64,000 bases of DNA from IMG/VR virus record IMGVR_UViG_3300049846_001482; one strand, 5' to 3'. The DNA comes from an uncultured virus (IMG/VR IMGVR_UViG_3300049846_001482). Its lineage: Duplodnaviria > Heunggongvirae > Uroviricota > Caudoviricetes. The position numbers and the translations under genes are program-made. Below are positions 2,450 through 37,442 of the stretch, one piece after another (within the stretch, counting starts at the first letter, position 1; each line of letters starts with the position of its first letter). The notes under the pieces were generated by a model, which was given only the letters and a program-made list of their open reading frames with translations, did not search any database and had not been told where the DNA came from.

Positions 2450-2801
2450 TGGTGGAGCCGGTGGGAGTCGAACCCACGTCCGAAGATCGATCCTGAACAG
2501 GCACTACATGTTTGTCTGTGTGTTTGGACCATTTATCGCCCGTTCAAGCCCCCACAGCGGAGCCATTCTTGGCTAGTAACCTTAGGTCTTAACTCCTCAC
2601 CAAGTTACCCGGATCGGAGAGCAGTCCTATTCGGCCTCTATCTAGTCTCTAGGACGAAGACTAGGAGAGGGAGGCAGTTTTTAAGCTGCTTCGAGGTAGA
2701 AATCTTCAGCAGTTATGCTGTGCCCAAGTTTTTAACGAGGTCTCAGACATCCCCGACATGCGCCCATTCGTTCACTTTCCCCGTCGAAACCGTGCGGCCC
2801 C
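2450..2801 (-). ncRNA. ssrA: tmRNA; tag reading frame 2681-2710 = (A)AEDFYLEAA*
   Basis: 5' GGGGCCGCACGGTTTCGACGGGG; 3' GTGGGTTCGACTCCCACCGGCTCCACCA; ATAACT-GCT resume context; tag ends AA-stop; 352 nt. Confidence 0.95.
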
Positions 2802-2819: not shown

Positions 2820-2849
2820 ATTATATTACTTTTCTATAAAAGATGTCAA
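2820..2849 (-). promoter_or_regulatory. consensus sigma70 promoter for tmRNA
   Basis: TTGACA-N18-TATAAT. Confidence 0.8.
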
Positions 2850-4333: not shown

Positions 4334-4411
4334 TGGTGGGAACTACAGGATTTGAACCTGTGACATCCATCTTGTAAGGATGGCGCTCTAACCGGGCTGA
4401 GCTAAGCTCCC
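4334..4411 (-). tRNA. tRNA-Val(TAC)
   Basis: Cloverleaf; anticodon arm CCATC-CTTACAA-GATGG; encoded CCA. Confidence 0.95.
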
Positions 4412-5635: not shown

Positions 5636-6847
5636 TTATTTCCACCTTGAGACAGCCACCTCTTCAAGAACTTTGGCTATCTGATCTCTAGTCATATCCC
5701 TAAAGAAGTAGTTCAGTCCCCTAACTGGGTTTGGAACCCCATCGATTTTTACCACTTCAATGTCAAAGTAGTACCTTGTGTTTTCTCTGACAAAATTGAT
5801 GGCTCCACGCATGGTAGGTGACACAACGCTGAAATTGACAAAAGAGCCATCGTTGGTCTTTACCATTATATCATAAACATGCGTCTTCTTTTTACCCGCA
5901 GGGACGCTTTCGCTCTTCTTTAGGCTATTGAGGAAAGACTTGACGGCTTCTGGATCAATGATACGGGATGCCTCCAAATGCTGAGTCTTGAATTTCTGCG
6001 TGGGGGCAATTGGATTACCGTCTTCTTGCTTGAATCTTTTGATGAGCTTCCGCAGAGCCCGAAGCTCATAACTCCTAACAGAAGCACCGCTGCAACGTAG
6101 GGTCTGAGCCGTATATCTTGCCGTCCGCTCATCAAAATAGAGAGACTGTATGACAAACCTCTCTTTTTCAGTCAGCTCTTGATCAATGAAAGCCCTGAGT
6201 TCTTCATGAAGAGTGGTCTTGATAACCTCTGCCTCTGGACTAGGACCAGGCGCAGCCATCGTATCAGCAAGCGTAAAGTCTTCGCTATTTTGTGATACGG
6301 GAGCAGAAAGGCTCAAAAATGAACGACTATCGGACATCGTTAGAATGTGCTCTAGCGTGTCCTGCATCTTCCTAGTGATGCCATTTTTCCGAAGCAAAAC
6401 CTCAAACTTCTCGTAATCACCACCAGACTTAATCAATAGCTTCTTATAAAGCCTAGCTTTGGGTGCGCCCTGAGAGAATCGCTTGGTGTCAACGACATTG
6501 CTGGACGATATTTCATCTCGAATATGCTTCAAGACGTGCCAGGTGGCGTAAGTGGAAAAAGCACAGCCTTTCGACATCTTGAATTTATCAAGCGCATCGA
6601 TAAGGCCGAGGATTCCGCATTGAAACAGATCATCGACCGTGCTGTTGCTTCTATAAGAGTAGCTGTTGGCGATTTTTAGAACGAATCTGAGGTTGTTGGC
6701 AATAACCTGATCCCTCAGCTTAATCTTCTCAGACTCGTTTTTGGTGCGCTTATACTTGCGGATTAACTTCAACAGATCTTCTCTGGAAAGATAATCCTTT
6801 TTAGCCTCAGCAGACAGGTACGATGTTGTGCTCTTGTTCTGCTGCAT
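5636..6847 (-). CDS. phage sigma-70 family factor with C-terminal extension
   Basis: Region 2 NNLRFVLKIA..DDLFQCGILGLIDALDKF..FSTYATW; region 4 LTEKERFVI..ELRALRKL. Confidence 0.9.
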   Translation of the reverse strand: MQQNKSTTSYLSAEAKKDYLSREDLLKLIRKYKRTKNESEKIKLRDQVIANNLRFVLKIANSYSYRSNSTVDDLFQCGILGLIDALDKFKMSKGCAFSTYATWHVLKHIRDEISSSNVVDTKRFSQGAPKARLYKKLLIKSGGDYEKFEVLLRKNGITRKMQDTLEHILTMSDSRSFLSLSAPVSQNSEDFTLADTMAAPGPSPEAEVIKTTLHEELRAFIDQELTEKERFVIQSLYFDERTARYTAQTLRCSGASVRSYELRALRKLIKRFKQEDGNPIAPTQKFKTQHLEASRIIDPEAVKSFLNSLKKSESVPAGKKKTHVYDIMVKTNDGSFVNFSVVSPTMRGAINFVRENTRYYFDIEVVKIDGVPNPVRGLNYFFRDMTRDQIAKVLEEVAVSRWK

Positions 6848-15072: not shown

Positions 15073-16227
15073 TTAGACCTCGATGACGATTTCTTTGATC
15101 TTCAAAGTCTCCATCAAGTACTTGATGTGAGTCTCACGAAGACCCTGCTTGACCGAATCAATGTTGCCATTCCGCAATCCAAACAAGATGCCATTGAAGG
15201 GAACATCCTTGATTGCAAGGGCAAAGTCCTTCTGAGCCTGCTTGTCTCCCTTGGGCATGTCCTTGACCTTGTTCCAAGCGGACTCTATCTGCTCAAGCAG
15301 ACCAACATACTTCTCCTTGATCTGCGTGTGCATGGACTTGAACTCAGGGAAGTAGTTCAAGAACTCCTCGGACTCGTTGGAACGGACGATCTCCAACATG
15401 CGCTTGGAGCCCATGCCGTCCCTCATGTGGTGCAGGGCGACATACTGCGGAGTCTTGATCTTGACCCTGTTGAAGTTGGCATCGCAGACAACATAGCCCT
15501 CACCCTCAGTCGGCGGGATATGCTCCAGCGTCTTGAGAACATCGTCCAGCGTACCCAGAGGGTAGGACTTGATTATCTCCCAGCCATATGCCATGTTGAA
15601 AACATTAACTGGAGAACCTTCGGCGTAGGATGCTATTCTCTTGGGAATATCAGAAGCCTCTTTCACGGAACGATAGCCGTGGAAGATGATGCGATTTGCC
15701 GTATGTTGAACAACCTGCTTGTTGTAGGGAGTGCAGAGTTCAAACATATAGCAAAACGAAGTCGCCACCTCATCCGTAGATGGCAACTTGTAGCCCAACT
15801 CATTCCACACCTTCCAGAACAGTTCTGCGAAGGTCAAGTTGGTGCCGTAGAGATTACCACCGGCATCGGGGGTGCCAGACGAAGCCACATGCCACTGGTT
15901 GTCGTACCAGTAGAGGGTCATGAGGGAGCCATCAGCCTTCTCATAGACCTTGGCAGTAGCCCAGTCTATGGGAGCAGCGTGACCCTCACCGTGGTTGAAG
16001 AACTTGTTGTAGGGGTAGGAGACAACAGCCCAGTTGTCGGACTCATCCAAGATGATTCCACGGCACTCCTGCACGATCTTCTCGCCCATAGGCGACTCGA
16101 TCTGGGAGTATTTGAACAACACCAAGTTGGGATACTTTGGGTGCCGCTTGACAGAAACGCCATACTTGGCCGTCATGTCTTCGGGCTTGTTGTCAGGATT
16201 ACGGAGAAACTTCTGTAGTTCGAGCAT
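15073..16227 (-). CDS. T4 Rnl1-like RNA ligase
   Basis: ECRGIILD, KFFN, motif I EKADGS, FEL, EGYVV, RVKIK. Confidence 0.9.
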   Translation of the reverse strand: MLELQKFLRNPDNKPEDMTAKYGVSVKRHPKYPNLVLFKYSQIESPMGEKIVQECRGIILDESDNWAVVSYPYNKFFNHGEGHAAPIDWATAKVYEKADGSLMTLYWYDNQWHVASSGTPDAGGNLYGTNLTFAELFWKVWNELGYKLPSTDEVATSFCYMFELCTPYNKQVVQHTANRIIFHGYRSVKEASDIPKRIASYAEGSPVNVFNMAYGWEIIKSYPLGTLDDVLKTLEHIPPTEGEGYVVCDANFNRVKIKTPQYVALHHMRDGMGSKRMLEIVRSNESEEFLNYFPEFKSMHTQIKEKYVGLLEQIESAWNKVKDMPKGDKQAQKDFALAIKDVPFNGILFGLRNGNIDSVKQGLRETHIKYLMETLKIKEIVIEV

Positions 16228-25993: not shown

Positions 25994-26446
25994 CTAAATC
26001 TCGTAGATGGTGACTGGGATACCCTCTTCGTCCGAAACCTTGACGATGATCTTCTTAATCTTCTGCCAATCACCACCAGCAAGACCGGCCCCTATCTTGG
26101 GAAGGGCAAGGCTCTTGAGTTTGTTCTCTTTCATGTGCTTGAAGACGTTCTTCAAGCCCATCTCAAAGCCCACATATTGAAAATGGTCGATCCCCCTTGG
26201 TAGGAAATCGACCTGAGTGTAGATGTTGTAGATTTGTTTGCCACCAGCTTGGGTGGTTGAGAACATGCCAATCTTGTTGCGACCAGCAGCCTTGTCAAAG
26301 TCAATGTCGGCCGCATAGACGGCTGGCCATTTTGCTCTTAGAGCCTTGGCAACACCGCTACCCATTGTCTTGCGGCAGTTGCAACCATGACCAATGGCGT
26401 CCTCAGTGGCTTGAAGCAGGTCGCCTTTAACAACATTGATGCTCAT
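25994..26446 (-). CDS. macro domain protein (ADP-ribose processing)
   Basis: VKGDLL, HGCNC..MGSGVA, YN.YTQ, PKIGAGLAGGDW. Confidence 0.92.
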   Translation of the reverse strand: MSINVVKGDLLQATEDAIGHGCNCRKTMGSGVAKALRAKWPAVYAADIDFDKAAGRNKIGMFSTTQAGGKQIYNIYTQVDFLPRGIDHFQYVGFEMGLKNVFKHMKENKLKSLALPKIGAGLAGGDWQKIKKIIVKVSDEEGIPVTIYEI

Positions 26447-27149
26447 AACAGTGTTCCTTTCCCTGTGAAGTACCTGAATCCCCGTTCCCACCCCATGCGT
26501 TCAAACTCACGAGCCACAACTAAAGCAAACCTCTTGTCTGCAAAATTGTGTTTGTTTTTCCAGTCTGGATAAAAGAGACATCTCGTGTCAAACTCCTCAT
26601 CACTCTTTAACTGGAGGACATCTGACTCTTTGATCTCTATATCCATTGCCTTGAAGTACCTGGCGGGACCATCATTGATGATCCACATGTAGGCGTTGTT
26701 CCCAAAGAAGTCCCTAAGGGTCCGCCTAAACAGAAGCTCATCGTTTTCAAGATAGAACTCCCAGGTACCATCACCGCATTGTTCACCAGGGATGTATTTT
26801 GCTCTCTTGATGAACACGACAGCCCTTTCTAGACTTCTATTTCTCTGGAGAGGATTTCACACCGAGTTCCATCCCCTATGAATGAAGCAACAATCTCATC
26901 TTCCTTGAATCTTTTGGTTAGATTATCGATATGAGAGTTGATAGAGTAAATTCCTTCCTTCGTCTTATATGGCTCCTGAGATTTTGTTTTTGTCAACGAG
27001 TTCACAACATCATTTCTAGTTGGTTTGTGTAGGTACTCGTATCCAAAAGCCAAAGACGCCATCGCTGGAGTGTTGTCAAACAAAGCCCCACCTAAGGAGA
27101 CAATCCACAGGCTTTTCGTTTTGACATTTTCCACTTCAACCTCTAAAAT

Positions 27150-27225
27150 TGGAGCCGACTGCCAGGATCGAACTGGCGACATCCGAATTACAAATTCGGT
27201 GCTCTACCAACTGAGCTAAGTCGGC
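27150..27225 (-). tRNA. tRNA-Thr(TGT)
   Basis: Cloverleaf; CCGAA-TTTGTAA-TTCGG; CCA. Confidence 0.95.
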
Positions 27226-27585
27226 GTTAGACTAATCGGTAAATCTCGTACTTGCGGTCCTTATGGTCGCTTGTTCTCTTTACATAGTCAAGCACTTCTT
27301 TTGCCTCTTCAATCGTGCCATTGAAGACTGTCTGATTGTGAACGGTGTAGGCTGCTATTTCACCGTTATCCCACCTAAAACCAATGACATAGGCAATCTT
27401 GTTCATTAGATCTCCGTTTTCACGTTTTCTTCTATCAGCGAATGCATCTCTTTCAGGGCTGCACGATACCCATCGAAGTAGGGGTCATTTGGAAACTTGT
27501 CCTTAAACCCGTCTTCGTAGAACTTGATGATGGCCAAAACTTGTTTTTTGACCTCTTTTGGATCTCTAGGGGTTGACATCAACCC

Positions 27586-27945
27586 TCACTTTAAAGCAGA
27601 GGCAATCCATTCTCCAAAGGGGCGATGGAATGCATGGTTGTTCGGAAGAACTCCCAAGATATTCGCAGCTCCAGTTGGATTCATGGAGTGAACAACCACT
27701 TGAGTACTGTGGTTGACGCCATGAACTATCTCTTTGGCAACAGCATATCCCGTATTGGGGTCATCACTGCTTACCATCGACCTATTTCCTAGATCGTGAT
27801 CCAAGAAGATGACATCATACTTGACGTTCTTTAGAAGTGGATGTGCCGTCTCTGCATCCTCGACGTAAGTGACATCGTGATTTGCCAACCACTTCTTAAA
27901 GCTCGCAATTCTCTCTTGGCTGTCTTCTAGAACAAAGATTTTCAG
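27586..27945 (-). CDS. cyclic-phosphate processing receiver-domain protein (probable CTG start)
   Basis: (M)KIFVLEDSQERI..FLDHDLG..TGYAVA..VHSMNPTGA. Confidence 0.8.
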   Translation of the reverse strand: MKIFVLEDSQERIASFKKWLANHDVTYVEDAETAHPLLKNVKYDVIFLDHDLGNRSMVSSDDPNTGYAVAKEIVHGVNHSTQVVVHSMNPTGAANILGVLPNNHAFHRPFGEWIASALK

Positions 27946-28466
27946 AGCATTCTCCTGAAGAACGTATCATATGGGACCATTGCTACGTCTGGGTTGCGTC
28001 TGGCATTTCTGAACTTCACGCTTTCGGATGCCGTTTGTTCTGGGTTGAAGACAAGGATTTGGGCTCTGGCAGGATTGTTGTTGTAGGTGTAACCATTGTC
28101 TTCGAGAATGGAGATCAACTCGCTGCGTGAACGTGGTCCTATGCCAGTCATGCAGACAATCGCTGGGGGTAGAAGCCTGCGATTGATGGGTGAAAGGTTT
28201 CTGCGGCGAGTGGTCCTGCGCCTTCTAGGTCTTGGCTGGGTGACTTCCATGACCACATTGGCCAAAATGTCGAGGTCGCCAGTCTGCCTAGTCCTTTCAC
28301 GTTCCATGATGTTGAGAGCGGCATCCCTGATGGTTCTTGATGCCTCATCGTTTCCATTGACAATGTTACGGGGTAGAGCCTTGCTCAATTTTCCTTTTGC
28401 CTTCGGTTTCTCAACCTTAGGTGCTTTTTCCTTGATCTGCTTTGCAACAAACGCATGACGGTTCAT
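27942..28466 (-). CDS. hypothetical protein with C-terminal BRCT-like domain
   Basis: Start MNRHAFVA; VCMTG..SRSEL..ILE.NG..AR..V.Y.TF. Confidence 0.55.
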   Translation of the reverse strand: MNRHAFVAKQIKEKAPKVEKPKAKGKLSKALPRNIVNGNDEASRTIRDAALNIMERERTRQTGDLDILANVVMEVTQPRPRRRRTTRRRNLSPINRRLLPPAIVCMTGIGPRSRSELISILEDNGYTYNNNPARAQILVFNPEQTASESVKFRNARRNPDVAMVPYDTFFRRML

Positions 28467-28513
28467 TTTAACATCCTCACATGATTCACATTTGGTATTA
28501 CATTTTAGAAAAC

Positions 28514-28591
28514 TGGTACACCCTACAGGATTTGAACCTGTGACCTCTCCCATGTCAAGGGAGCGCTCTAACCGGGCTGAGCTAAGGGTGC
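28514..28591 (-). tRNA. tRNA-Val(GAC)
   Basis: Cloverleaf; CTCCC-TTGACAT-GGGAG; CCA. Confidence 0.95.
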
Positions 28592-28803
28592 GTGTTAGGA
28601 GGAATGGTGGTTTCCTCCAAATAGTCGCAATCTTCCTCTTTGTTCAGGCAGAAAAGCCCGAAGTAGGAGTCGTGATAGATGGCCATGTGCCACGTTCCAT
28701 AGAGGGTCTGCTTGCCACACTTTGGGCAAACCTTGTCTTTGACCTCACCCTCACCGTTGATACCGTCCCTGAATGCCGTCATGACCCAATCCCAGAATGT
28801 ATT

Positions 28804-28879
28804 TGGAGCTGTGAGCCGGGATTGAACCGGCGACCTCAGTCTTACCAAGACTGTGCTCTACCAACTGAGCTATCACAGC
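28804..28879 (-). tRNA. tRNA-Thr(GGT)
   Basis: Cloverleaf; CAGTC-TTGGTAA-GACTG; CCA. Confidence 0.95.
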
Positions 28880-28880
28880 G

Positions 28881-29438
28881 TTACTTCTCTGCAGCCTTCT
28901 TTGCCTCACGCTCATTGAGATACTTGAGAGCCTTCACATACCAGATGTTCTGGATGTCTTCGTCTGTGATCTGACGAAGTTGGGTCTCATCCTTGATTGG
29001 ACCCCACCAAGACTCTGCTCCCATGATGACCTTGTTCAGATCTGGGACGAAGATGGCTGGGTTGGAGCTAAGGGTAAGCATCAAGATCTGCTTTTTAGGA
29101 TCGTAGGCCCTAACACCACTCAGAGGGATATCACCGATGTAGATGCCCAAGAACGTCTTGCCCTTGTATTCATCGCCCACGGGCCTAATCATCACGTATC
29201 CGCCGACCATCTCTTGATCTTTTGGTGTTCTGGTGGTGCATCCCATCCGACCCTGAAACCTCAGTTCCTTGACCTTGATGGGATACTTGATGTTCTCTTC
29301 GTATTGGTAATGCTCAGTCTCTTTCATGGCCTTAGCCAAGGCTCCGATCATTGAAGCAAGAGCATTTGTTCCCTCATCTTGCTTCTTCGTGGACTTCTTT
29401 GGCTTTACTTCCTTCTTGCTTACCGGCTTCTTAGCCAT
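28881..29438 (-). CDS. hypothetical phage protein (start MAKKP)
   Basis: ORF between two tRNAs; KTFLGIY..NPAIFVP..GAESWW. Confidence 0.75.
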   Translation of the reverse strand: MAKKPVSKKEVKPKKSTKKQDEGTNALASMIGALAKAMKETEHYQYEENIKYPIKVKELRFQGRMGCTTRTPKDQEMVGGYVMIRPVGDEYKGKTFLGIYIGDIPLSGVRAYDPKKQILMLTLSSNPAIFVPDLNKVIMGAESWWGPIKDETQLRQITDEDIQNIWYVKALKYLNEREAKKAAEK

Positions 29439-29458
29439 GTTAGACCTGAGAGAGAGTT

Positions 29459-29534
29459 TGGAGCCGTCAGTCGGGATTGAACCGACGACCTCCGAATTAC
29501 GAATTCGGCGCTCTACCAACTGAGCTATGACGGC
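29459..29534 (-). tRNA. tRNA-Thr(CGT)
   Basis: Cloverleaf; CCGAA-TTCGTAA-TTCGG; CCA. Confidence 0.95.
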
Positions 29535-29730
29535 GAACTGCTTAGTTCTCTTTATTTATCTCAAACTCAAGGATAAACCAGTCATTGTTAGCTGGATAAC
29601 CCCTTTTTCTGTTGATATATTCGCCTGCCTTTTCCTTGCTATCAAAAACACCCATGACCTCCGTTTTTTCTTCGTCACCACTAAGCGACCAATAAGTTAC
29701 TACGAAGACAGTCATGGTTGTCTCTTAAAT

Positions 29731-29805
29731 TGGAGCGGGCAGTGGGTTTCGAACCCACGACCTTCACTTTGGCAAAGTGACGCTCTACCCCTGAGCTATG
29801 CCCGC
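29731..29805 (-). tRNA. tRNA-Gly(GCC)
   Basis: Cloverleaf; TCACT-TTGCCAA-AGTGA; U73, CCA. Confidence 0.95.
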
Positions 29806-29806
29806 A

Positions 29807-30190
29807 TTATCTCTTTCTTAACTTCCTGCCATTGCCCCTATTGAGATTGCCATAGGTAGGTGTCAGGGAGTGGCAGTTAGGACACAAGAGAATCAAATTA
29901 CTCTCACGATGATCTCTTGAGTTTCCATTCTGGTGTTCTGCTTGCAGTGGTATCTTTCCTGTCACTGGATTCTTGTGGTTCCAACCACATCTTGAACACT
30001 TGTTTTCGAACTTTTCAAACAAGTATCTCCTTACGTGGTTGGAAACCACTCCAGTCTTGGATCCGCCACTTACAAGTCCAGATTTCCATCTCTTAATGTA
30101 GTTCTTGTAGGACAGTTCATTTTGACATGCATTGTCGCAGAACTTCTTTATTTTGGACTTGATATCTTTATTGCAGTTCAGACATTGCAT
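29807..30190 (-). CDS. free-standing HNH endonuclease between the two tRNA-Gly genes
   Basis: CLNC..KFCDNAC; CSRCG..EHQNGN..N..LLCPNCHS. Confidence 0.88.
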   Translation of the reverse strand: MQCLNCNKDIKSKIKKFCDNACQNELSYKNYIKRWKSGLVSGGSKTGVVSNHVRRYLFEKFENKCSRCGWNHKNPVTGKIPLQAEHQNGNSRDHRESNLILLCPNCHSLTPTYGNLNRGNGRKLRKR

Positions 30191-30215
30191 GTTGCATTGA
30201 ACCACCCTGTTAAAT

Positions 30216-30289
30216 TGGAGCGGGATAAGGGAATCGAACCCTCGCATCCTCCTTGGAAGGGAGGCAGGCTACCATTACATCAATCCCGC
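30216..30289 (-). tRNA. tRNA-Gly(TCC)
   Basis: Cloverleaf; anticodon loop CTTCCAA; U73, CCA. Confidence 0.93.
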
Positions 30290-30363
30290 ATATCTGCTGG
30301 ATCTTCCCTCTCGCCACACCAGCCGTGGCGCTCATCAGCTTGCTGGGGCTGAACCCCAGGGCC

Positions 30364-30675
30364 TCACAAGGCTTTCTGAATTAGATCCTGAATGGCTGGC
30401 TTGGGTCTAAAGCCCACAAAGCTTCCAACCACGTTTCCGCCCTTGAATATCACGAAGGCGGGGATGGAACTGACACCGTACTTCGATGACAACTCCATGT
30501 TCTCATCGACATTGAGTTTGGCGAACTTCACATCTTCCATTTCTTTCTCTAGCTCGCTGAACACGGGTCCAACCATTCTGCAAGGACCACACCATTCAGC
30601 CCAAAAGTCTACTACAACTGGCTTTTCCGAGTCAAGAACCTCTTGCGTGAAATTCTCACTTGTCAAGTTGAGCAT
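30364..30675 (-). CDS. trxA: thioredoxin
   Basis: [22 protein letters not shown]. Confidence 0.97.
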
Positions 30676-31132
30676 TGATTCTCCTTTTGACCATCACTTC
30701 GACTTCTTGCCAGAGCTTTGCCTTCTTATCGTAGACCCAAAAAGACATCTTCACGCTCTTCTTTCTCTTGCCAGTGACTCCGACGATCATCTGATGTCTG
30801 AATCTTCGATAGACCTTTCCGATGTAGGAGTCTTTCTCGCTTAGAGCCGTGAAGCCTGTTGATGGGTGGCTATGATACATTCCATAGACAAACCCCTTCT
30901 TCTCGTTCTTTCTAGTCAACTCCTTGATCTTCCTGACGTACTTCTTGGAAATGTCGCCAGAATCAAGAGGCTGTCTAGAGATGTTCTTACAAGGAACTAC
31001 TTCAGTGATGCGAAGGTTTCCCACACCCTCAGGGATGGCTTCAAAGTAGCCTATACACTCTTGAGGGTATTCCGCTACTGCATGTCTCTTTAAGAGATCA
31101 TAGAGCAGATTTTCTATGTACAGGAAATCCAT
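30656..31132 (-). CDS. JAB/MPN (Mov34) domain protein
   Basis: [21 protein letters not shown] motif. Confidence 0.85.
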
Positions 31133-31156
31133 TCGCCATCTGGTTCCTTGTTAAAT

Positions 31157-31231
31157 TGGCTCCGACCTCTGGACTCGAACCAGAAACCACTCGATTAACA
31201 GTCGAGCGCTCTACCATTGAGCTAGGTCGGA
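31157..31231 (-). tRNA. tRNA-Asn(GTT)
   Basis: Cloverleaf; CTCGA-CTGTTAA-TCGAG; G73, CCA. Confidence 0.95.
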
Positions 31232-31237
31232 ATGAAG

Positions 31238-31423
31238 TTACTTCTTCTTTCTTCTTTCTTTTCTTACTGTTATCTCAACTAGCCAGTCGTAACACTTGAC
31301 GCAGAGGTGGTATTTTTGAACCACGTCCACCCCATTGTCATCAACTTGTGGCGGCGACAATATGATAGCGCCTTTTTCTTTCAGTTCTTCAAGGCACCTG
31401 TCGCATGCTACTTTTAAAGCCAC
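31238..31423 (-). CDS. small Cys-rich protein
   Basis: CDRC..HLCVKC. Confidence 0.6.
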   Translation of the reverse strand: MALKVACDRCLEELKEKGAIILSPPQVDDNGVDVVQKYHLCVKCYDWLVEITVRKERRKKK

Positions 31424-31848
31424 TATTTACTCCAGGGCGTGGATTTGTCTTCTATCTTAACAAAAACCTCGTCCTTGTCAAGCGCTAAAGGTATCAACCA
31501 GAAAAGATTTGGAATGATGTTATGCTCCCACGCCATAATATCATCCACATTGTACCAACCAACTTTTTCGATTGTCAAAGACCTAATAGTGATACTTTCA
31601 CTTTTGGCGACGAAGAAGTGAACTTCGTTTCCTGAGTGGTTCATGTAGGCAAACTCTCTCCATGAATCCACTTGGCCGCCGGTTTCTTCAAGGAACTCTC
31701 TCTTCATGGCTTCGGCTGGGGTCTCGCCCTCTTCTATCTTGCCGCCGACTCCATTGAGGAATCCCTTTTGCCATTCTGGTTTCTGCTTTTCAATCAAAGC
31801 CACCGTTCCACGCTTTGGATTGTAGAGAAACCCTACTACGTATCTCAC
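31423..31848 (-). CDS. NUDIX hydrolase
   Basis: GGKIEEGETPAEAMKREFLEETG Nudix box. Confidence 0.93.
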   Translation of the reverse strand: MRYVVGFLYNPKRGTVALIEKQKPEWQKGFLNGVGGKIEEGETPAEAMKREFLEETGGQVDSWREFAYMNHSGNEVHFFVAKSESITIRSLTIEKVGWYNVDDIMAWEHNIIPNLFWLIPLALDKDEVFVKIEDKSTPWSK

Positions 31849-32285
31849 AGAGCCTTCCCGCCGTGACGATGTGGCCTTGTGGCATTGTAGTTCATCTTTA
31901 ACTTGACCACTGCTTCCAGATCCCAGCCTCGCATTGCGAAGTAATCACCGATTCTGATCACTGCATCTGCAAGTTCAACAGCCTCGCCTTCGGGTTTGGC
32001 AATTCCCAAGGACTCATCCCAGTAAGCCTGCTCTTTCATTTCCTTACCGTCAGGGCTACTTAGGTTGCCACGGTTAAGCCTGTTGATGCTTCCGTCTGGC
32101 TCTACTTCGTTGCCTTCCCAAACCACATAGGTTGAGGGCTTTTTGTTTCTCACTTCCTCTGAGGCCTCGGCTATCTCCGTGACCATCAGCATATGAAACT
32201 CTAGCGGTTGTCTTTCTCTTCCCTCATACCACCCCTTGTCTTTGGACATTTGGTGGGCTTGCGAAGCCATTTCATTCAGTGTCAT
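31845..32285 (-). CDS. MazG-like NTP pyrophosphohydrolase
   Basis: LMVTEIAEASEE..ELADAVIRI.D..KMNYN.TRP.RHG. Confidence 0.85.
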   Translation of the reverse strand: MTLNEMASQAHQMSKDKGWYEGRERQPLEFHMLMVTEIAEASEEVRNKKPSTYVVWEGNEVEPDGSINRLNRGNLSSPDGKEMKEQAYWDESLGIAKPEGEAVELADAVIRIGDYFAMRGWDLEAVVKLKMNYNATRPHRHGGKAL

Positions 32286-32336
32286 TTTCTTCTCCTAGTA
32301 GGTGATCTGAGTTTAGCACCATCTAGGATGTATTTC

Positions 32337-32370
32337 AAAAACAAAAACCCTTCGGGGTTTCCGAAGGGTC
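32337..32370 (-). terminator. intrinsic terminator of the leader (attenuator)
   Basis: GACCCTTCGG-AAACC-CCGAAGGGT followed by TTTTGTTTTT. Confidence 0.85.
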
Positions 32371-32396
32371 AGAGGCGGCTGGATTCTTGCTTCTCT

Positions 32397-32483
32397 TTAC
32401 CCTTCGGACAAAACGGTATTAACCCCATTACCTGTGGTAGTGGTGTTGACCGTTCCCGTGTTGAGGGCGAAGATGAAAAGCAT
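32397..32483 (-). CDS. leader peptide MLFIFALNTGTVNTTTTGNGVNTVLSEG (putative tRNA-sensing attenuator)
   Basis: GGAG SD 6 nt before ATG; 17 consecutive N/T/G/V codons; stop overlaps a copy of the terminator 3' arm. Confidence 0.8.
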   Translation of the reverse strand: MLFIFALNTGTVNTTTTGNGVNTVLSEG

Positions 32484-32508
32484 TTTTAGCTCCATACGTT
32501 ACTAGTTT

Positions 32509-32536
32509 TTTATAAAAGATGACAGGATTCTAGCAA
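32509..32536 (-). promoter_or_regulatory. putative promoter of the leader/tRNA operon
   Basis: TTGCTA-N16-TATAAA; CATCTTTTATA also occurs upstream of the tmRNA. Confidence 0.4.
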
Positions 32537-32919
32537 TTCCTGATCACCACTTAAAACTGTCAAAACACTCTATTTTTACCACTTTCTTCATGAAGTTATG
32601 ATACTCAAAGTTCTTGATCGTTCCAGATATCAAAACTTTGGCGGTCTTGGTCCCATCGATCATCTGGTCTCCCAGATATTGAACCAACTTGACTTCATGG
32701 TTTTTATTGACAGCCCGAATGGCGATGTTTTTGCAGCCATTCAATTGCAGGTTCTCTATAACCCCTTCATACCCCAACTCTTTCTGGGTGTCAAGCTCTT
32801 TTTCCAACTTTTCTACTAGCGCTCCGCAGGTCTCTTGGGTTCCAACGAATTTTCCTCGTTGATAGCCTATGAAGTAGAAGTTGACCGCTACTCCAACGAC
32901 CAGAACGGCAGCGATGACT

Positions 32920-33258
32920 TTATTCATTGGGAACATCCCCGTAACTCTTGATGACCCTACCTTGTTGGTCGTATTCAACAATGTAGATCATCTGCCCTTC
33001 CTTCCACATGCTTTTTCCAGACAACTTGCCGTCTTGATAGTATTCTAGCAGCTCACCATCAATTCGTCCATCTTTGTATGAGCCTTTTTTCTTTACCTTC
33101 TGTCCTGGCTCATTGTAGTACTCAATGTATTCGCCTTGCAGCTTAGTCCTATTTTTTCTGTCTGGACCTGTGTGGCAAATGGTTCTCAAAAAACCATCTG
33201 CATAAGCATCGTCTCCACCCAACTGACGATAGTGGGTTTCGGTTCGTTTCAGTTCCAT
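32920..33258 (-). CDS. MORN-variant/YwqK-like repeat protein
   Basis: G.Y.EYY..G..K.KG.YKDG..DG...EYY..GK repeats. Confidence 0.75.
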   Translation of the reverse strand: MELKRTETHYRQLGGDDAYADGFLRTICHTGPDRKNRTKLQGEYIEYYNEPGQKVKKKGSYKDGRIDGELLEYYQDGKLSGKSMWKEGQMIYIVEYDQQGRVIKSYGDVPNE

Positions 33259-34514
33259 TAGTCCCTCACAAGTTCACCAGAGGCGTGATCTGCATACTTG
33301 GCGTAAGCATCCACCGAGACAGTCTCAGCCTCAGGGTAAACAAAGGCAGTCAACTTGCCGCCAAAGCAGCAAGCGGTATCAACGTTAGCGGTCTTGTTGA
33401 TGATGTAGGGCTTGCCGTTGGTCTGGGCTGCGTGACCATAGACAATCCACGGGCTGTTCTCATTCACAACCCTCTCGGCCGCCCAATCCAGACGCTCAGG
33501 AAAACCATTCTCATCCTTGTTGCCAGTGATCTTGCCGAAAAGGCAGAAGGTTCGAATAGCGCCCTTGTCATCCTTGCCGATCATGCTGTCCTCGATACCA
33601 GCGTGAGCAACAACGAGCTTGCCACCGTCAAGAACAAGGTAGAGAGGAAGGCTGCTGATGAAATTCAAGAGCTTAGCCTTAAACTCCTTAGCATCCTCAC
33701 GAGCCTCTATCTGGTTGACGGTCTCAGCAATGCCATGACCCAACTTGATGTTGTTGCCCATCAGATAACGGCGCAGCTTGTCGTCATGGTTGCCTCGGAC
33801 AGCCAAAGCAAGACCCTGCTCAACCAGATTCATGATGTATTCAAGAGTACCGGCGTTGCTCGGACCCCTGTCGGCAAAATCGCCAACGAAGACGATCTTG
33901 CGACCATCCAAGAGACCCTTTATACGCAAGTCCTCTATCAGAGCAATGAGCTCTGGCAGGCAACCGTGGGTGTCACCTATGATGACAGCCTTATCGACTA
34001 TCTCTACACTGTTCACTACGCTCGTATCCTGAAAAACAAAAGGCTCATTGACGGAAGAAGCATGGATGATTTCGTTGATGTCGTCCTCAGCCAAATGCTT
34101 CAAGCCATCGAAGAAGGTCTCCACAGACTTCTTCACGATGTCTGCAGGAACAACCCTCTTACGTCCAGCATTTTGAGCCTGACACACGTTGTTGTCAACA
34201 TGATCAAAGACAATGGCTATCTTTTTGTAGCCATACTTGTCAGCCAACTTGAACCAATCCCTACGAGAGCGGGCATTGTGGTTCAGGTTGTCTATCACAA
34301 CAGGGAAACCATGCCTCATCTTGACATCAACGAGGGTATAGAGGATGTCAAAGGCTTCCCTAGACACATTCTGGTTGCCAGCATCACCAGAGATCATCTC
34401 CCTGATGGTGTCGGCAGAGACAATGTGCGCACCAAACCACTTGGAAGCAAACGTAGACTTACCGCTTCCAATGGGTCCACAGAGAAGGACGAGGGTGCGC
34501 TGTTCCAATTTCAT
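33258..34514 (-). CDS. polynucleotide kinase-phosphatase (P-loop kinase + calcineurin-like phosphoesterase)
   Basis: GPIGSGKSTF, SAD.IR; IGDTHGC, VGDFADRGP, RGNHD, VAHAG, VYGH, DTACCFGGKLTA; lacks the C-terminal ligase domain of bacterial Pnkp. Confidence 0.9.
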   Translation of the reverse strand: MKLEQRTLVLLCGPIGSGKSTFASKWFGAHIVSADTIREMISGDAGNQNVSREAFDILYTLVDVKMRHGFPVVIDNLNHNARSRRDWFKLADKYGYKKIAIVFDHVDNNVCQAQNAGRKRVVPADIVKKSVETFFDGLKHLAEDDINEIIHASSVNEPFVFQDTSVVNSVEIVDKAVIIGDTHGCLPELIALIEDLRIKGLLDGRKIVFVGDFADRGPSNAGTLEYIMNLVEQGLALAVRGNHDDKLRRYLMGNNIKLGHGIAETVNQIEAREDAKEFKAKLLNFISSLPLYLVLDGGKLVVAHAGIEDSMIGKDDKGAIRTFCLFGKITGNKDENGFPERLDWAAERVVNENSPWIVYGHAAQTNGKPYIINKTANVDTACCFGGKLTAFVYPEAETVSVDAYAKYADHASGELVRD

Positions 34515-37305: not shown

Positions 37306-37327
37306 CCGTTCTTCCTCCGTAAGTTAT

Positions 37328-37430
37328 ACTTTGAAATTTTTGCACGTACTTAAGGTCTTAAGTACTATGTGCACCCCACAATTTCTAAGCCCACAAGTAC
37401 TATTATAAGTACGTGCAAAAAATTTCAAGT
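37328..37430. repeat. imperfect ~25-bp inverted repeat with nested palindrome
   Basis: ACTTTGAAATTTTTGCACGTACTTA ... TAAGTACGTGCAAAAAATTTCAAGT; internal GTACTTAAG-GT-CTTAAGTAC. Confidence 0.85.
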
Positions 37431-37442
37431 AAAATCTTTGAA

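Follow-up and report, generated by a model that had tools for sequence, protein, structure and literature searches.

A putative multivalent leader-peptide attenuator ahead of a phage tRNA block with matching isotypes

How might a phage adjust the transcription of its tRNA genes to the needs of decoding? This question is raised by a 64,000-nucleotide stretch of DNA from an uncultured virus of the Caudoviricetes (IMG/VR record IMGVR_UViG_3300049846_001482; the whole stretch is hereafter called the window), in which a 28-codon open reading frame (ORF) rich in Asn, Thr, Gly and Val codons is followed by an intrinsic terminator and, further downstream on the same strand, by seven tRNA genes for these same four amino acids. 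The purpose of phage tRNA genes has long been debated, codon compensation being weighed against escape from tRNA-cleaving defences (for example PMC10264068), and their regulation has hardly been addressed. We propose, with a probability of roughly 0.6, that the ORF and the terminator constitute a multivalent leader-peptide attenuator, which admits transcription into a block of MazG-like, NUDIX and tRNA genes when its own codons are decoded slowly.

The leader ORF lies on the minus strand (32397..32483), where it reads from an ATG at 32483 to a TAA at 32399..32397 and encodes the peptide MLFIFALNTGTVNTTTTGNGVNTVLSEG, laid out as MLFIFAL-NTGTVNTTTTGNGVNTV-LSEG. A Shine-Dalgarno GGAG on the same strand (32490..32493) stands 6 nt upstream of the ATG, such that the ORF has the ribosome site and the short coding length of the leaders in ribosome-mediated attenuators; an alternative in-frame ATG at 32495, from which 32 amino acids would be made, has no ribosome site. 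The cluster of regulatory codons typical of such attenuators has its counterpart in codons 8-24 (32412..32462, minus strand), a block of 17 consecutive codons whose residues are limited to Asn (4), Thr (7, with all four of its codons used), Gly (3) and Val (3). This run is the longest of its kind among the 989 small ORFs of the window, where the runner-up reaches 6, and the maximum among 28,535 small ORFs from 176 fetched loci is 10. Low complexity is in itself no rarity, seven of the 989 small ORFs of the window having stretches of at least 14 residues drawn from four or fewer types; the unusual trait of this leader is the length of the run together with the identity of the four residue types.

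The intrinsic terminator (32334..32370, minus strand) is situated between the leader and the downstream genes, as in an attenuator, and comprises a hairpin at 32370..32346 (10-bp stem, 5-nt loop, -17.0 kcal/mol) followed by TTTTTGTTTTTG, with the T-tract at 32345..32334. The sequence CCGAAGGGT is present twice, once as the terminator 3' arm (32355..32347) and once at 32407..32399, and ACCCTTCGG at 32369..32361 is complementary to this upstream 9-base copy. The minus-strand RNA can accordingly be divided into a segment 1, the 5' part of the ORF (32456..32482); a segment 2, the antiterminator 5' arm (32393..32408), which spans the last three sense codons and the stop and copies the terminator 3' arm; a segment 3 (32360..32374), which is the partner either of segment 2 in the antiterminator or of segment 4 in the terminator; and this last segment itself. 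The antiterminator helix (32408..32393 with 32374..32360) has a computed energy of -22.5 kcal/mol and, as both it and the terminator use segment 3, the two helices are mutually exclusive. Segment 1 can in turn pair with segment 2 (-17.2 kcal/mol), a pairing with moderate support. When the duplex energies were compared with those of 1000 shuffles, the 2:3 energy was reached by one shuffle, the 3:4 energy by none and the 1:2 energy by 36. The fold of the 181-nt region is better than all 200 shuffles (z -3.67), and in it the ORF 5' part (32482..32456) is paired with the stop-codon region and the terminator is formed.

As a proxy for co-transcriptional folding, the RNA was folded as far as segment 3, the 30 nt under a ribosome footprint being masked. 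With the ribosome at codons 2-21 the antiterminator makes 9-10 of its 10 pairs; with the ribosome at codon 22 it makes seven, and at codons 23-28 or the stop it makes none. Because the antiterminator forms for stalls through codon 21, at 14 of the 17 block codons a stalled ribosome would open the switch, these, codons 8-21, being the part of the block where the antiterminator stays free in this fold. The arrangement is that of an attenuator, in that antiterminator and terminator cannot coexist and a ribosome that has reached the last codons (23 to stop) hides the former.

The seven tRNA genes, on which ARAGORN and Rfam agree, lie on the same strand at 31231..27150, within 5.2 kb downstream, in the order Asn-GTT, Gly-TCC, Gly-GCC, Thr-CGT, Thr-GGT, Val-GAC and Thr-TGT. 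The same programs find two further RNA genes, a tRNA Val-TAC at 4411..4334 and a transfer-messenger RNA (tmRNA) at 2801..2450, and each of the eight tRNAs of the 64-kb window is for an amino acid found in the leader block (Asn, Gly, Thr or Val). The original prediction, which had described the ORF with its frame, coordinates and GGAG site, the composition of the 17-codon block, the arm copy with its alternative pairing, and the seven downstream tRNAs with the distant Val-TAC, was borne out on each of these counts by minus-strand reading and translation or, for the tRNAs, by ARAGORN and Rfam. It had also suggested a comparison of the terminator and antiterminator energies, and the values given above belong to mutually exclusive helices placed as in the Escherichia coli thrL leader. 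As an observation, the conjunction of the ORF, the block and the arm copy is far from chance.

We also uncovered leader-array units of this design in other phages. In LR756501.1, a 735-kb uncultured phage with 66 tRNA matches and arrays sorted by isotype, each of the five arrays of at least five tRNAs is headed by a promoter-like box, then a small ORF, then a strong terminator. With the leader taken as the ORF from the first ATG after the conserved box, a rule fixed after the data had been seen, the Met/Gln/Ile/Glu array is headed by MNFRIINMIQEQMQQIQNLIGGTISY, the Ile/Cys/Asp/Asn/Tyr array by MKNMVRKYNDYCINDKLKMLIG, the array of five Leu tRNAs by MNNILHINLLNSLCLLGIKLIG, the Trp/His/Phe/Lys/Ser array by MLQTSKHSKHFSSSSKWFTTFGVETDLLCVS and the Arg/Thr/Val/Ala/Gly/Pro array by MLFNSNISVKFTPAPAVAFRRGTGTGTGTCVPAGCGFEGMNG. 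The isotypes of each array are all present in its leader, and the 3' part of each ORF is complementary to the region of the terminator 5' arm. Four of the five leaders lie 33-278 nt upstream of the first tRNA without an intervening protein gene; the second unit has a homologue of ribosomal protein L7/L12 between its terminator and the tRNAs. No leader was seen at the small groups of 1-3 tRNAs of this phage (loci L182, L183 and L185). Similarly, in the cultured Agrobacterium phage Atu_ph07 a 42-codon ORF, annotated only as the hypothetical protein gp469, and a terminator precede the first array, whose nine tRNAs are for Ala, Arg, Phe, Pro, Ile, Tyr, Trp, Met and Glu; all nine isotypes are present in the leader, which has a 22-residue stretch with 19 residues from the array set. 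The two stretches looked at around the later arrays of Atu_ph07 hold no such unit.

When the seven leaders were scored against the seven arrays, the true pairing was the best of all 5,040 permutations; it likewise came top of 120 when the test was restricted to LR756501.1 and top of 720 when Atu_ph07 was dropped. For the window leader, its own array set, which accounts for 18 of the 27 residues after Met1, ranked first of seven. The original prediction had called for a check in other phages, namely whether leader composition follows the tRNAs behind, and the LR756501.1 and Atu_ph07 data, like the comparison of the helix energies, favour it. What computation on the DNA shows is the ORF with its three alternative helices and how these are arranged, that the block and the arm copy are both rare, that the isotypes match and that other phages carry units of this design. 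The attenuator reading is well supported by the predicted anatomy and the cross-phage test, and the leader-peptide attenuator design, as read from these genomes, is recurrent in large phages. Our searches of the literature, which did not extend to subscription journals, turned up no description of phage tRNA genes under a leader-peptide attenuator, nor of the LR756501.1 and Atu_ph07 units; the main text of the Atu_ph07 genome paper (PMC6102473) has no occurrence of “attenuat” or “leader”, and that of a comparison of 224 jumbo phages (PMC7824862) has none of “attenuat” or “leader peptide”.

The LR756501.1 units have further features of their own. The box before all five leaders (loci L178-L184) consists of an A-rich run, TGAC, a T-run and then AATATATA. 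In three of the units the terminators are nearly identical and the ORFs finish with L-I-G, the stretch that encodes the arm copy; the units look like paralogues. The loci L185 (688600-691000) and L182 also contain two tandem tRNAs with a CTA anticodon, which read amber and are labelled Pyl by ARAGORN, as well as odd tRNA-like genes whose anticodon loops are short, a hint at stop-codon reassignment in this phage.

If the window element works as proposed, transcription would arrive from upstream or from a weak promoter at about 32536..32509 and enter the 28-codon leader. A ribosome that gets to codon 23 or beyond, or to the stop, would cover segment 2 and leave segment 3 to pair with segment 4, whereupon the terminator would form and RNA polymerase would stop at the T-tract. 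With charged tRNA scarce, the ribosome would stall on the Asn, Thr, Gly and Val codons at positions 8-21, segment 2 would be free to pair with segment 3, and, with no terminator formed, transcription would read through into the genes for the MazG-like, NUDIX and zinc-ribbon proteins and, barring another signal, onward into the block of tRNAs for Asn, Gly (two), Thr (three) and Val. More of these tRNAs would mean faster translation of the leader and closure of the switch, a negative feedback that would amount to supply on demand for exactly the isotypes sampled by the leader. Because the sensor would be the ribosomal A site, such a switch would answer amino-acid starvation and tRNA loss alike. 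We infer that the ribosome translates the leader, that its stalling governs read-through and that the resulting transcripts extend as far as the tRNAs.

Control of the tRNA genes by the switch is plausible, with the weight divided between this and control of the two pyrophosphatase genes alone. The first gene behind the switch codes for a MazG-like nucleotide pyrophosphatase (31845..32285, minus strand) with a match to a PHROG pyrophosphatase (2.7e-27) and none in Pfam; in tblastn it matches annotated MazG-like phage genes, and its AGGAG stands at the same spacing as the ribosome site of the leader. It is followed on the minus strand by a NUDIX hydrolase gene (31423..31848; Pfam PF00293, 8.8e-13), by a 61-codon zinc-ribbon-like ORF with two Cys-x-x-Cys pairs (31238..31423), which was read from the sequence and ends 7 nt before tRNA-Asn, and by the tRNA block (27150..31231), where the seven tRNAs are interleaved with JAB, thioredoxin, HNH, cREC_REC and unknown genes. 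A terminator scan of the window found no convincing terminator from the MazG-like and NUDIX genes to the tRNAs. As a separate matter, a hairpin at 32292-32325, between the terminator and the MazG-like gene, has a CCTAG that pairs with a CTAGG overlapping the ribosome site of the gene, and it may add translational control of the latter.

The same neighborhood supplies the first set of points that weigh against our proposal, to which those on folding, composition and sampling are added below. While the switch and the array are on the same strand with no terminator between, a distance of 1.1 kb separates the terminator from the first tRNA, and three protein genes (MazG-like, NUDIX and zinc-ribbon) and promoter-like sites fall within it. 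Two sigma70-like matches (11/12 and 10/12, both with an extended -10 TG) occur on the minus strand at 31454..31578, inside the NUDIX gene and upstream of tRNA-Asn, and a weaker one (9/12 with TG) at 32310..32338, minus strand, directly downstream of the terminator. Such matches are three times commoner on the coding strand (18 vs 6) and, given this excess and the perfect match before the tmRNA, they are probably real promoters; the tRNAs may hence be made independently from the internal promoters at 31578..31454. The original prediction had named strong internal promoters that transcribe the tRNAs by themselves as a result that would count against it: sigma70-like sites are indeed present between the switch and the tRNAs, but they are consensus matches only. 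No clear promoter was found for the leader, the weak minus-strand site TTGCTA-16 nt-TATAAA at 32509..32536 being an uncertain one, read from the sequence and missing from the list of the consensus scan; its predicted start falls some 20 nt ahead of the leader ATG. At 32528..32506 the sequence is similar to the spacer of the perfect sigma70-type promoter ahead of the tmRNA.

Several side observations bear on transcription in the window. The tmRNA (tag AEDFYLEAA, ARAGORN) lies directly behind this perfect 12/12 sigma70-type promoter (2849..2820; the two together at 2450-2849), the spacer of which has a stretch of about 20 nt in common with the region upstream of the leader. A gene for a sigma-70-family factor with regions 2 and 4 is found at 5636-6847; the phage may redirect the host RNA polymerase through this factor, which bears on the promoters that serve the leader and the tRNAs. 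In an intergenic gap at 37306-37442, a long near-perfect inverted repeat (arms of about 23 bp) surrounds a TATAAT-like box and may be an operator or a regulated promoter.

The neighborhood would also suit a genuine attenuator that targets only the MazG-like and NUDIX pyrophosphatases, with the tRNAs made from their own promoters and the codon match arising from host-limiting codons that are reflected in both the leader and the tRNA set. These two genes are immediately downstream, and the promoter-like sites at 31578..31454 precede tRNA-Asn. Moreover, hydrolysis of (p)ppGpp, an alarmone whose synthesis is set off by uncharged tRNA in the ribosome, has been reported for MazG and for some NUDIX enzymes, which would give such a switch its starvation logic. 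However, this explanation does not require the exact four-isotype match, and the stretch from the NUDIX gene to the tRNAs lacks a terminator. Further, because four of the five LR756501.1 leaders stand directly before tRNAs with no intervening protein gene, the tRNA array is the recurring partner of such leaders. We regard the pyrophosphatase-only explanation as unlikely.

A more prosaic account would have an ordinary gene for a 28-amino-acid protein, or a small RNA, ending in a simple terminator at the close of the upstream operon, with no regulatory role for the alternative pairing. Such an account draws on the scarcity of strict terminators in the window, which has two, each on the minus strand, and on this one following a long run of co-directional genes; on the lack of a promoter clearly assigned to the leader; and on translation of the leader being a prediction. 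Against it stands a screen of 135 strict terminators in the window and 168 fetched loci (about 1.75 Mb, both strands), in which at least 8 nt of the terminator 3' arm had to be repeated no more than 120 nt upstream and E. coli thrL served as the positive control: an upstream arm copy was found in two of the 135, the window element, in which 9-10 nt are copied over the stop codon, and the thrL control. The antiterminator energy that one shuffle in 1000 reaches, the peptide composition, an extreme outlier that equals the tRNA set, and the same design ahead of tRNA arrays in other phages further render this account quite improbable. In none of the 11 other gaps of at least 120 nt in the window is there an ORF with a ribosome site and a terminator behind it.

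Could the element instead be a captured leader of a bacterial thr operon, serving as a Thr-only sensor or persisting as a relic, with its other residues being structural? The window leader and E. coli thrL have T-T-G-N-G codons in common, with 20 of 23 bases identical around them, a likeness that none of 1000 codon-order shuffles reaches (maximum 19); the geometry of the arm copy is as in thrL, and Thr is the commonest residue (7 of 28). Yet the Thr_leader family of Rfam (RF00506) has no match at the gathering score, nor at E values up to 10 over 32250..32600, and the downstream genes are the MazG-like and NUDIX genes and tRNAs, with none for threonine biosynthesis. Asn, Gly and Val codons are also present in the sensing zone and match the tRNAs behind it. 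A search for leader-like DNA in Bdellovibrionota-type bacteria had no significant match in four genomes (best E 0.04, short matches) and found nothing similar in 17 more. Descent may account for the likeness, or else convergence on one and the same hairpin, and a captured Thr-only leader seems distinctly improbable to us. As for chance, that is, a low-complexity off-frame ORF that happens to lie beside a terminator, the seven low-complexity small ORFs of the window lend it some colour, but the controls for the rarity of the arm copy, of the Asn/Thr/Gly/Val run and of the duplex energies, together with the recurrence in other phages, are all contrary and make it very improbable.

To return to the proposed attenuator of the tRNA block, the remaining points against it concern the folding, the composition and the samples. 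In the equilibrium fold of the full-length RNA, the antiterminator is the minimum-energy state at only six of 21 stall positions and is not so at the Thr run; because equilibrium favours it at few positions, the model depends on co-transcriptional order. The truncated RNA folds into the antiterminator even without a ribosome, and the 1:2 pairing has an energy that 36 of 1000 shuffles match. Within the block, a hairpin on the minus strand (32411..32455, -16.3 kcal/mol), possibly a pause hairpin, pairs codons in frame, ACC with GGU and AAC with GUU. Because it pairs complementary codons, some of the Gly and Val codons follow from the Thr and Asn codons, and the composition of the block is partly explained by this hairpin. 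The cross-phage test is of a small sample, scored at the level of amino acids, with the picking rule for LR756501.1 set post hoc; in it, Atu_ph07 is weak when taken alone, with 23 of 41 residues in a nine-isotype set, an enrichment of 1.25 and its own set second of seven. Thus, the attenuator claimed by the original prediction stands on its anatomy, its geometry and the cross-phage match, and loses some ground to the intervening genes and promoters and to the hairpin-driven composition. The part of that claim that rested on the Val codons, which occur as GTC and GTT alone, falls away as not significant, such an outcome being expected 30% of the time (P = 0.30) from the way the phage itself uses codons.

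Relatives of the element were sought in phage records, IMG/VR, metagenome contigs and GTDB genomes. A blastn search of 31800..33300 against 50,697 phage records had no match. In IMG/VR, the MazG-like protein as a single query matched no stretch, an alignment query gave a best identity of 49% among 80 loci, and two DNA patterns made from the element (the arms and the back-translated block) had no match each. In the metagenome contigs the best identity to the MazG-like protein among the matches listed is 49%; its closest protein relative is P0004, with 81-86% over the aligned part. The GTDB genomes yielded seven MazG-like loci with identities of 47% or less, four of them in Bdellovibrionota-type metagenome-assembled genomes (MAGs). 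These nearest relatives in the genome collection (L162-L164 and L166; 41-47% identity) are on short contigs, and their placement is a weak hint either at host range or at phage contigs binned with Bdellovibrionota-type MAGs. The fetched MazG-like loci show no comparable leader, no further terminator with an arm copy and no Asn/Thr/Gly/Val run above 10, and their tRNAs number only 21 in 177 loci, too few to gauge co-variation with leaders. It also weighs against the proposal that no fetched relative in any of these searches carries the locus. Rfam has no family for the element, be it at the gathering score across the window or at E values up to 10 on 32250..32600. In passing, many human-gut contigs (L020, L022, L026, L028 and about 20 more metagenome or IMG/VR loci) have, on the strand opposite to the MazG-like gene, a conserved small ORF, MPTTTAYTITTATERQTTPTSA, with 9-10 Thr in 22 residues; a strong GC-rich terminator follows its end at about 73 nt, and the ORF may be a Thr-sensing leader of another kind.

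Close variation is seen in three short contigs, from three runs of two other studies, that cover 32300..32608 with one to three differences each, among them a synonymous TTC to TTT, a GGA to GTA (Gly to Val) and one in the -35-like hexamer, with none listed in 32346..32410. A search for RNA runs that contain the stretch listed none. In the one run that covers both, the leader piece differs at two of 215 bases and the piece of the MazG-like gene at 11 of 211. As the contigs have a depth below 5, single differences may be errors, and constraint on the leader region is hinted at, no more. Separately, at position 31826 the contig of one run leaves the 3' part of the MazG-like gene for unlike sequence where the window has the NUDIX gene; in that relative the gene order is different.

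The window itself, in which 90 of 105 crude ORF calls are on one strand, looks like part of a large uncultured phage. Its genes include those for a thymidylate synthase, a sigma-70-family factor, a T4 Rnl1-type RNA ligase, a kinase-phosphatase and cREC_REC, Macro, JAB, thioredoxin and HNH proteins; its protein matches to known phages are only distant ones, to huge phages, and its own MazG-like protein is on record on a 195,487-bp contig. Among these genes we observed an RNA-repair set comprising the T4 Rnl1-type RNA ligase (15073-16227), an AAA_33 kinase-metallophosphatase fusion (33258-34514), a cREC_REC receiver (27586-27888) and a Macro protein (25994-26491), which resembles a tRNA repair toolkit beside tRNA genes. 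The presence of this set and of the tmRNA, genes of tRNA repair and rescue, in one window speaks for the proposal, and given the nearby RNA-repair genes tRNA damage is a plausible setting for the switch. A link to one particular anticodon nuclease was considered and dropped, a term search in the PARIS paper (PMC11464382) having turned up no passage on Thr or Asn tRNAs.

Extending this, it is possible, though somewhat less likely than not, that large phages maintain a modular tRNA supply network, in which each tRNA block would be gated by an attenuator written in its own amino acids. Such a phage would gauge in real time which host tRNAs fail, through starvation, anticodon-nuclease cleavage or other damage, and replace only these. 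The module of the window would in addition switch on two pyrophosphatases, forming with the RNA-repair genes and the tmRNA one translation-rescue system. Were the attenuator reading to prove true, phage tRNAs would be an inducible, self-limiting response to decoding failure; the classic attenuator of amino-acid operons would have been reused for a new class of product, tRNAs; and there would be a sequence rule that predicts which tRNAs a phage expects to lose in its host. The small size of the element and the presence of the design in a cultured phage, as gp469 of Atu_ph07, would make the idea directly testable.

How, then, does the element compare with known systems? Among its close counterparts are the LR756501.1 and Atu_ph07 units, which likewise combine a small ORF that matches the isotypes of the array, a strong terminator and complementarity of the ORF 3' part to the 5' arm; the unit with the L7/L12 homologue before its tRNAs also recalls the intervening protein genes of the window. 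Unlike the window element, however, with its three intervening protein genes and promoter-like sites, these phages give each isotype-sorted array a unit of its own and share a promoter box that is conserved; in sequence the units and the window element are not similar, and the phages themselves are only distantly related to that of the window (about 36% identity in one 519-amino-acid protein).

Of the systems already described, the thr attenuator of E. coli comes closest; its leader thrL, which senses Thr and Ile, is like the window leader a short Thr-rich ORF with a hairpin inside its coding part. In both, the stop-codon region copies 9 nt of the terminator 3' arm, the copy starting before the terminator 5' arm by 32 nt in thrL and by 38 nt in the window. 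The window element is unlike the Thr_leader family in that it has no match to the Rfam model, is in a phage and samples four isotypes, and the genes behind it are pyrophosphatases and tRNAs, whereas thrABC lie behind E. coli thrL. The ilvGMEDA and ilvBN leaders are multivalent, sampling Ile, Leu and Val, and control biosynthetic enzymes; by description they are like the window leader in sampling several amino acids at once and in having regulated genes that serve those amino acids, but the matching products in the window are tRNAs. The pheM leader senses one amino acid and controls a synthetase through the pheST attenuator, and T-box RNAs bind tRNA directly, without a ribosome; the window has no Rfam match to a T-box. 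What these two have in common with the window element, again by description, is that genes of the translation apparatus are tied to the charging of a given tRNA.

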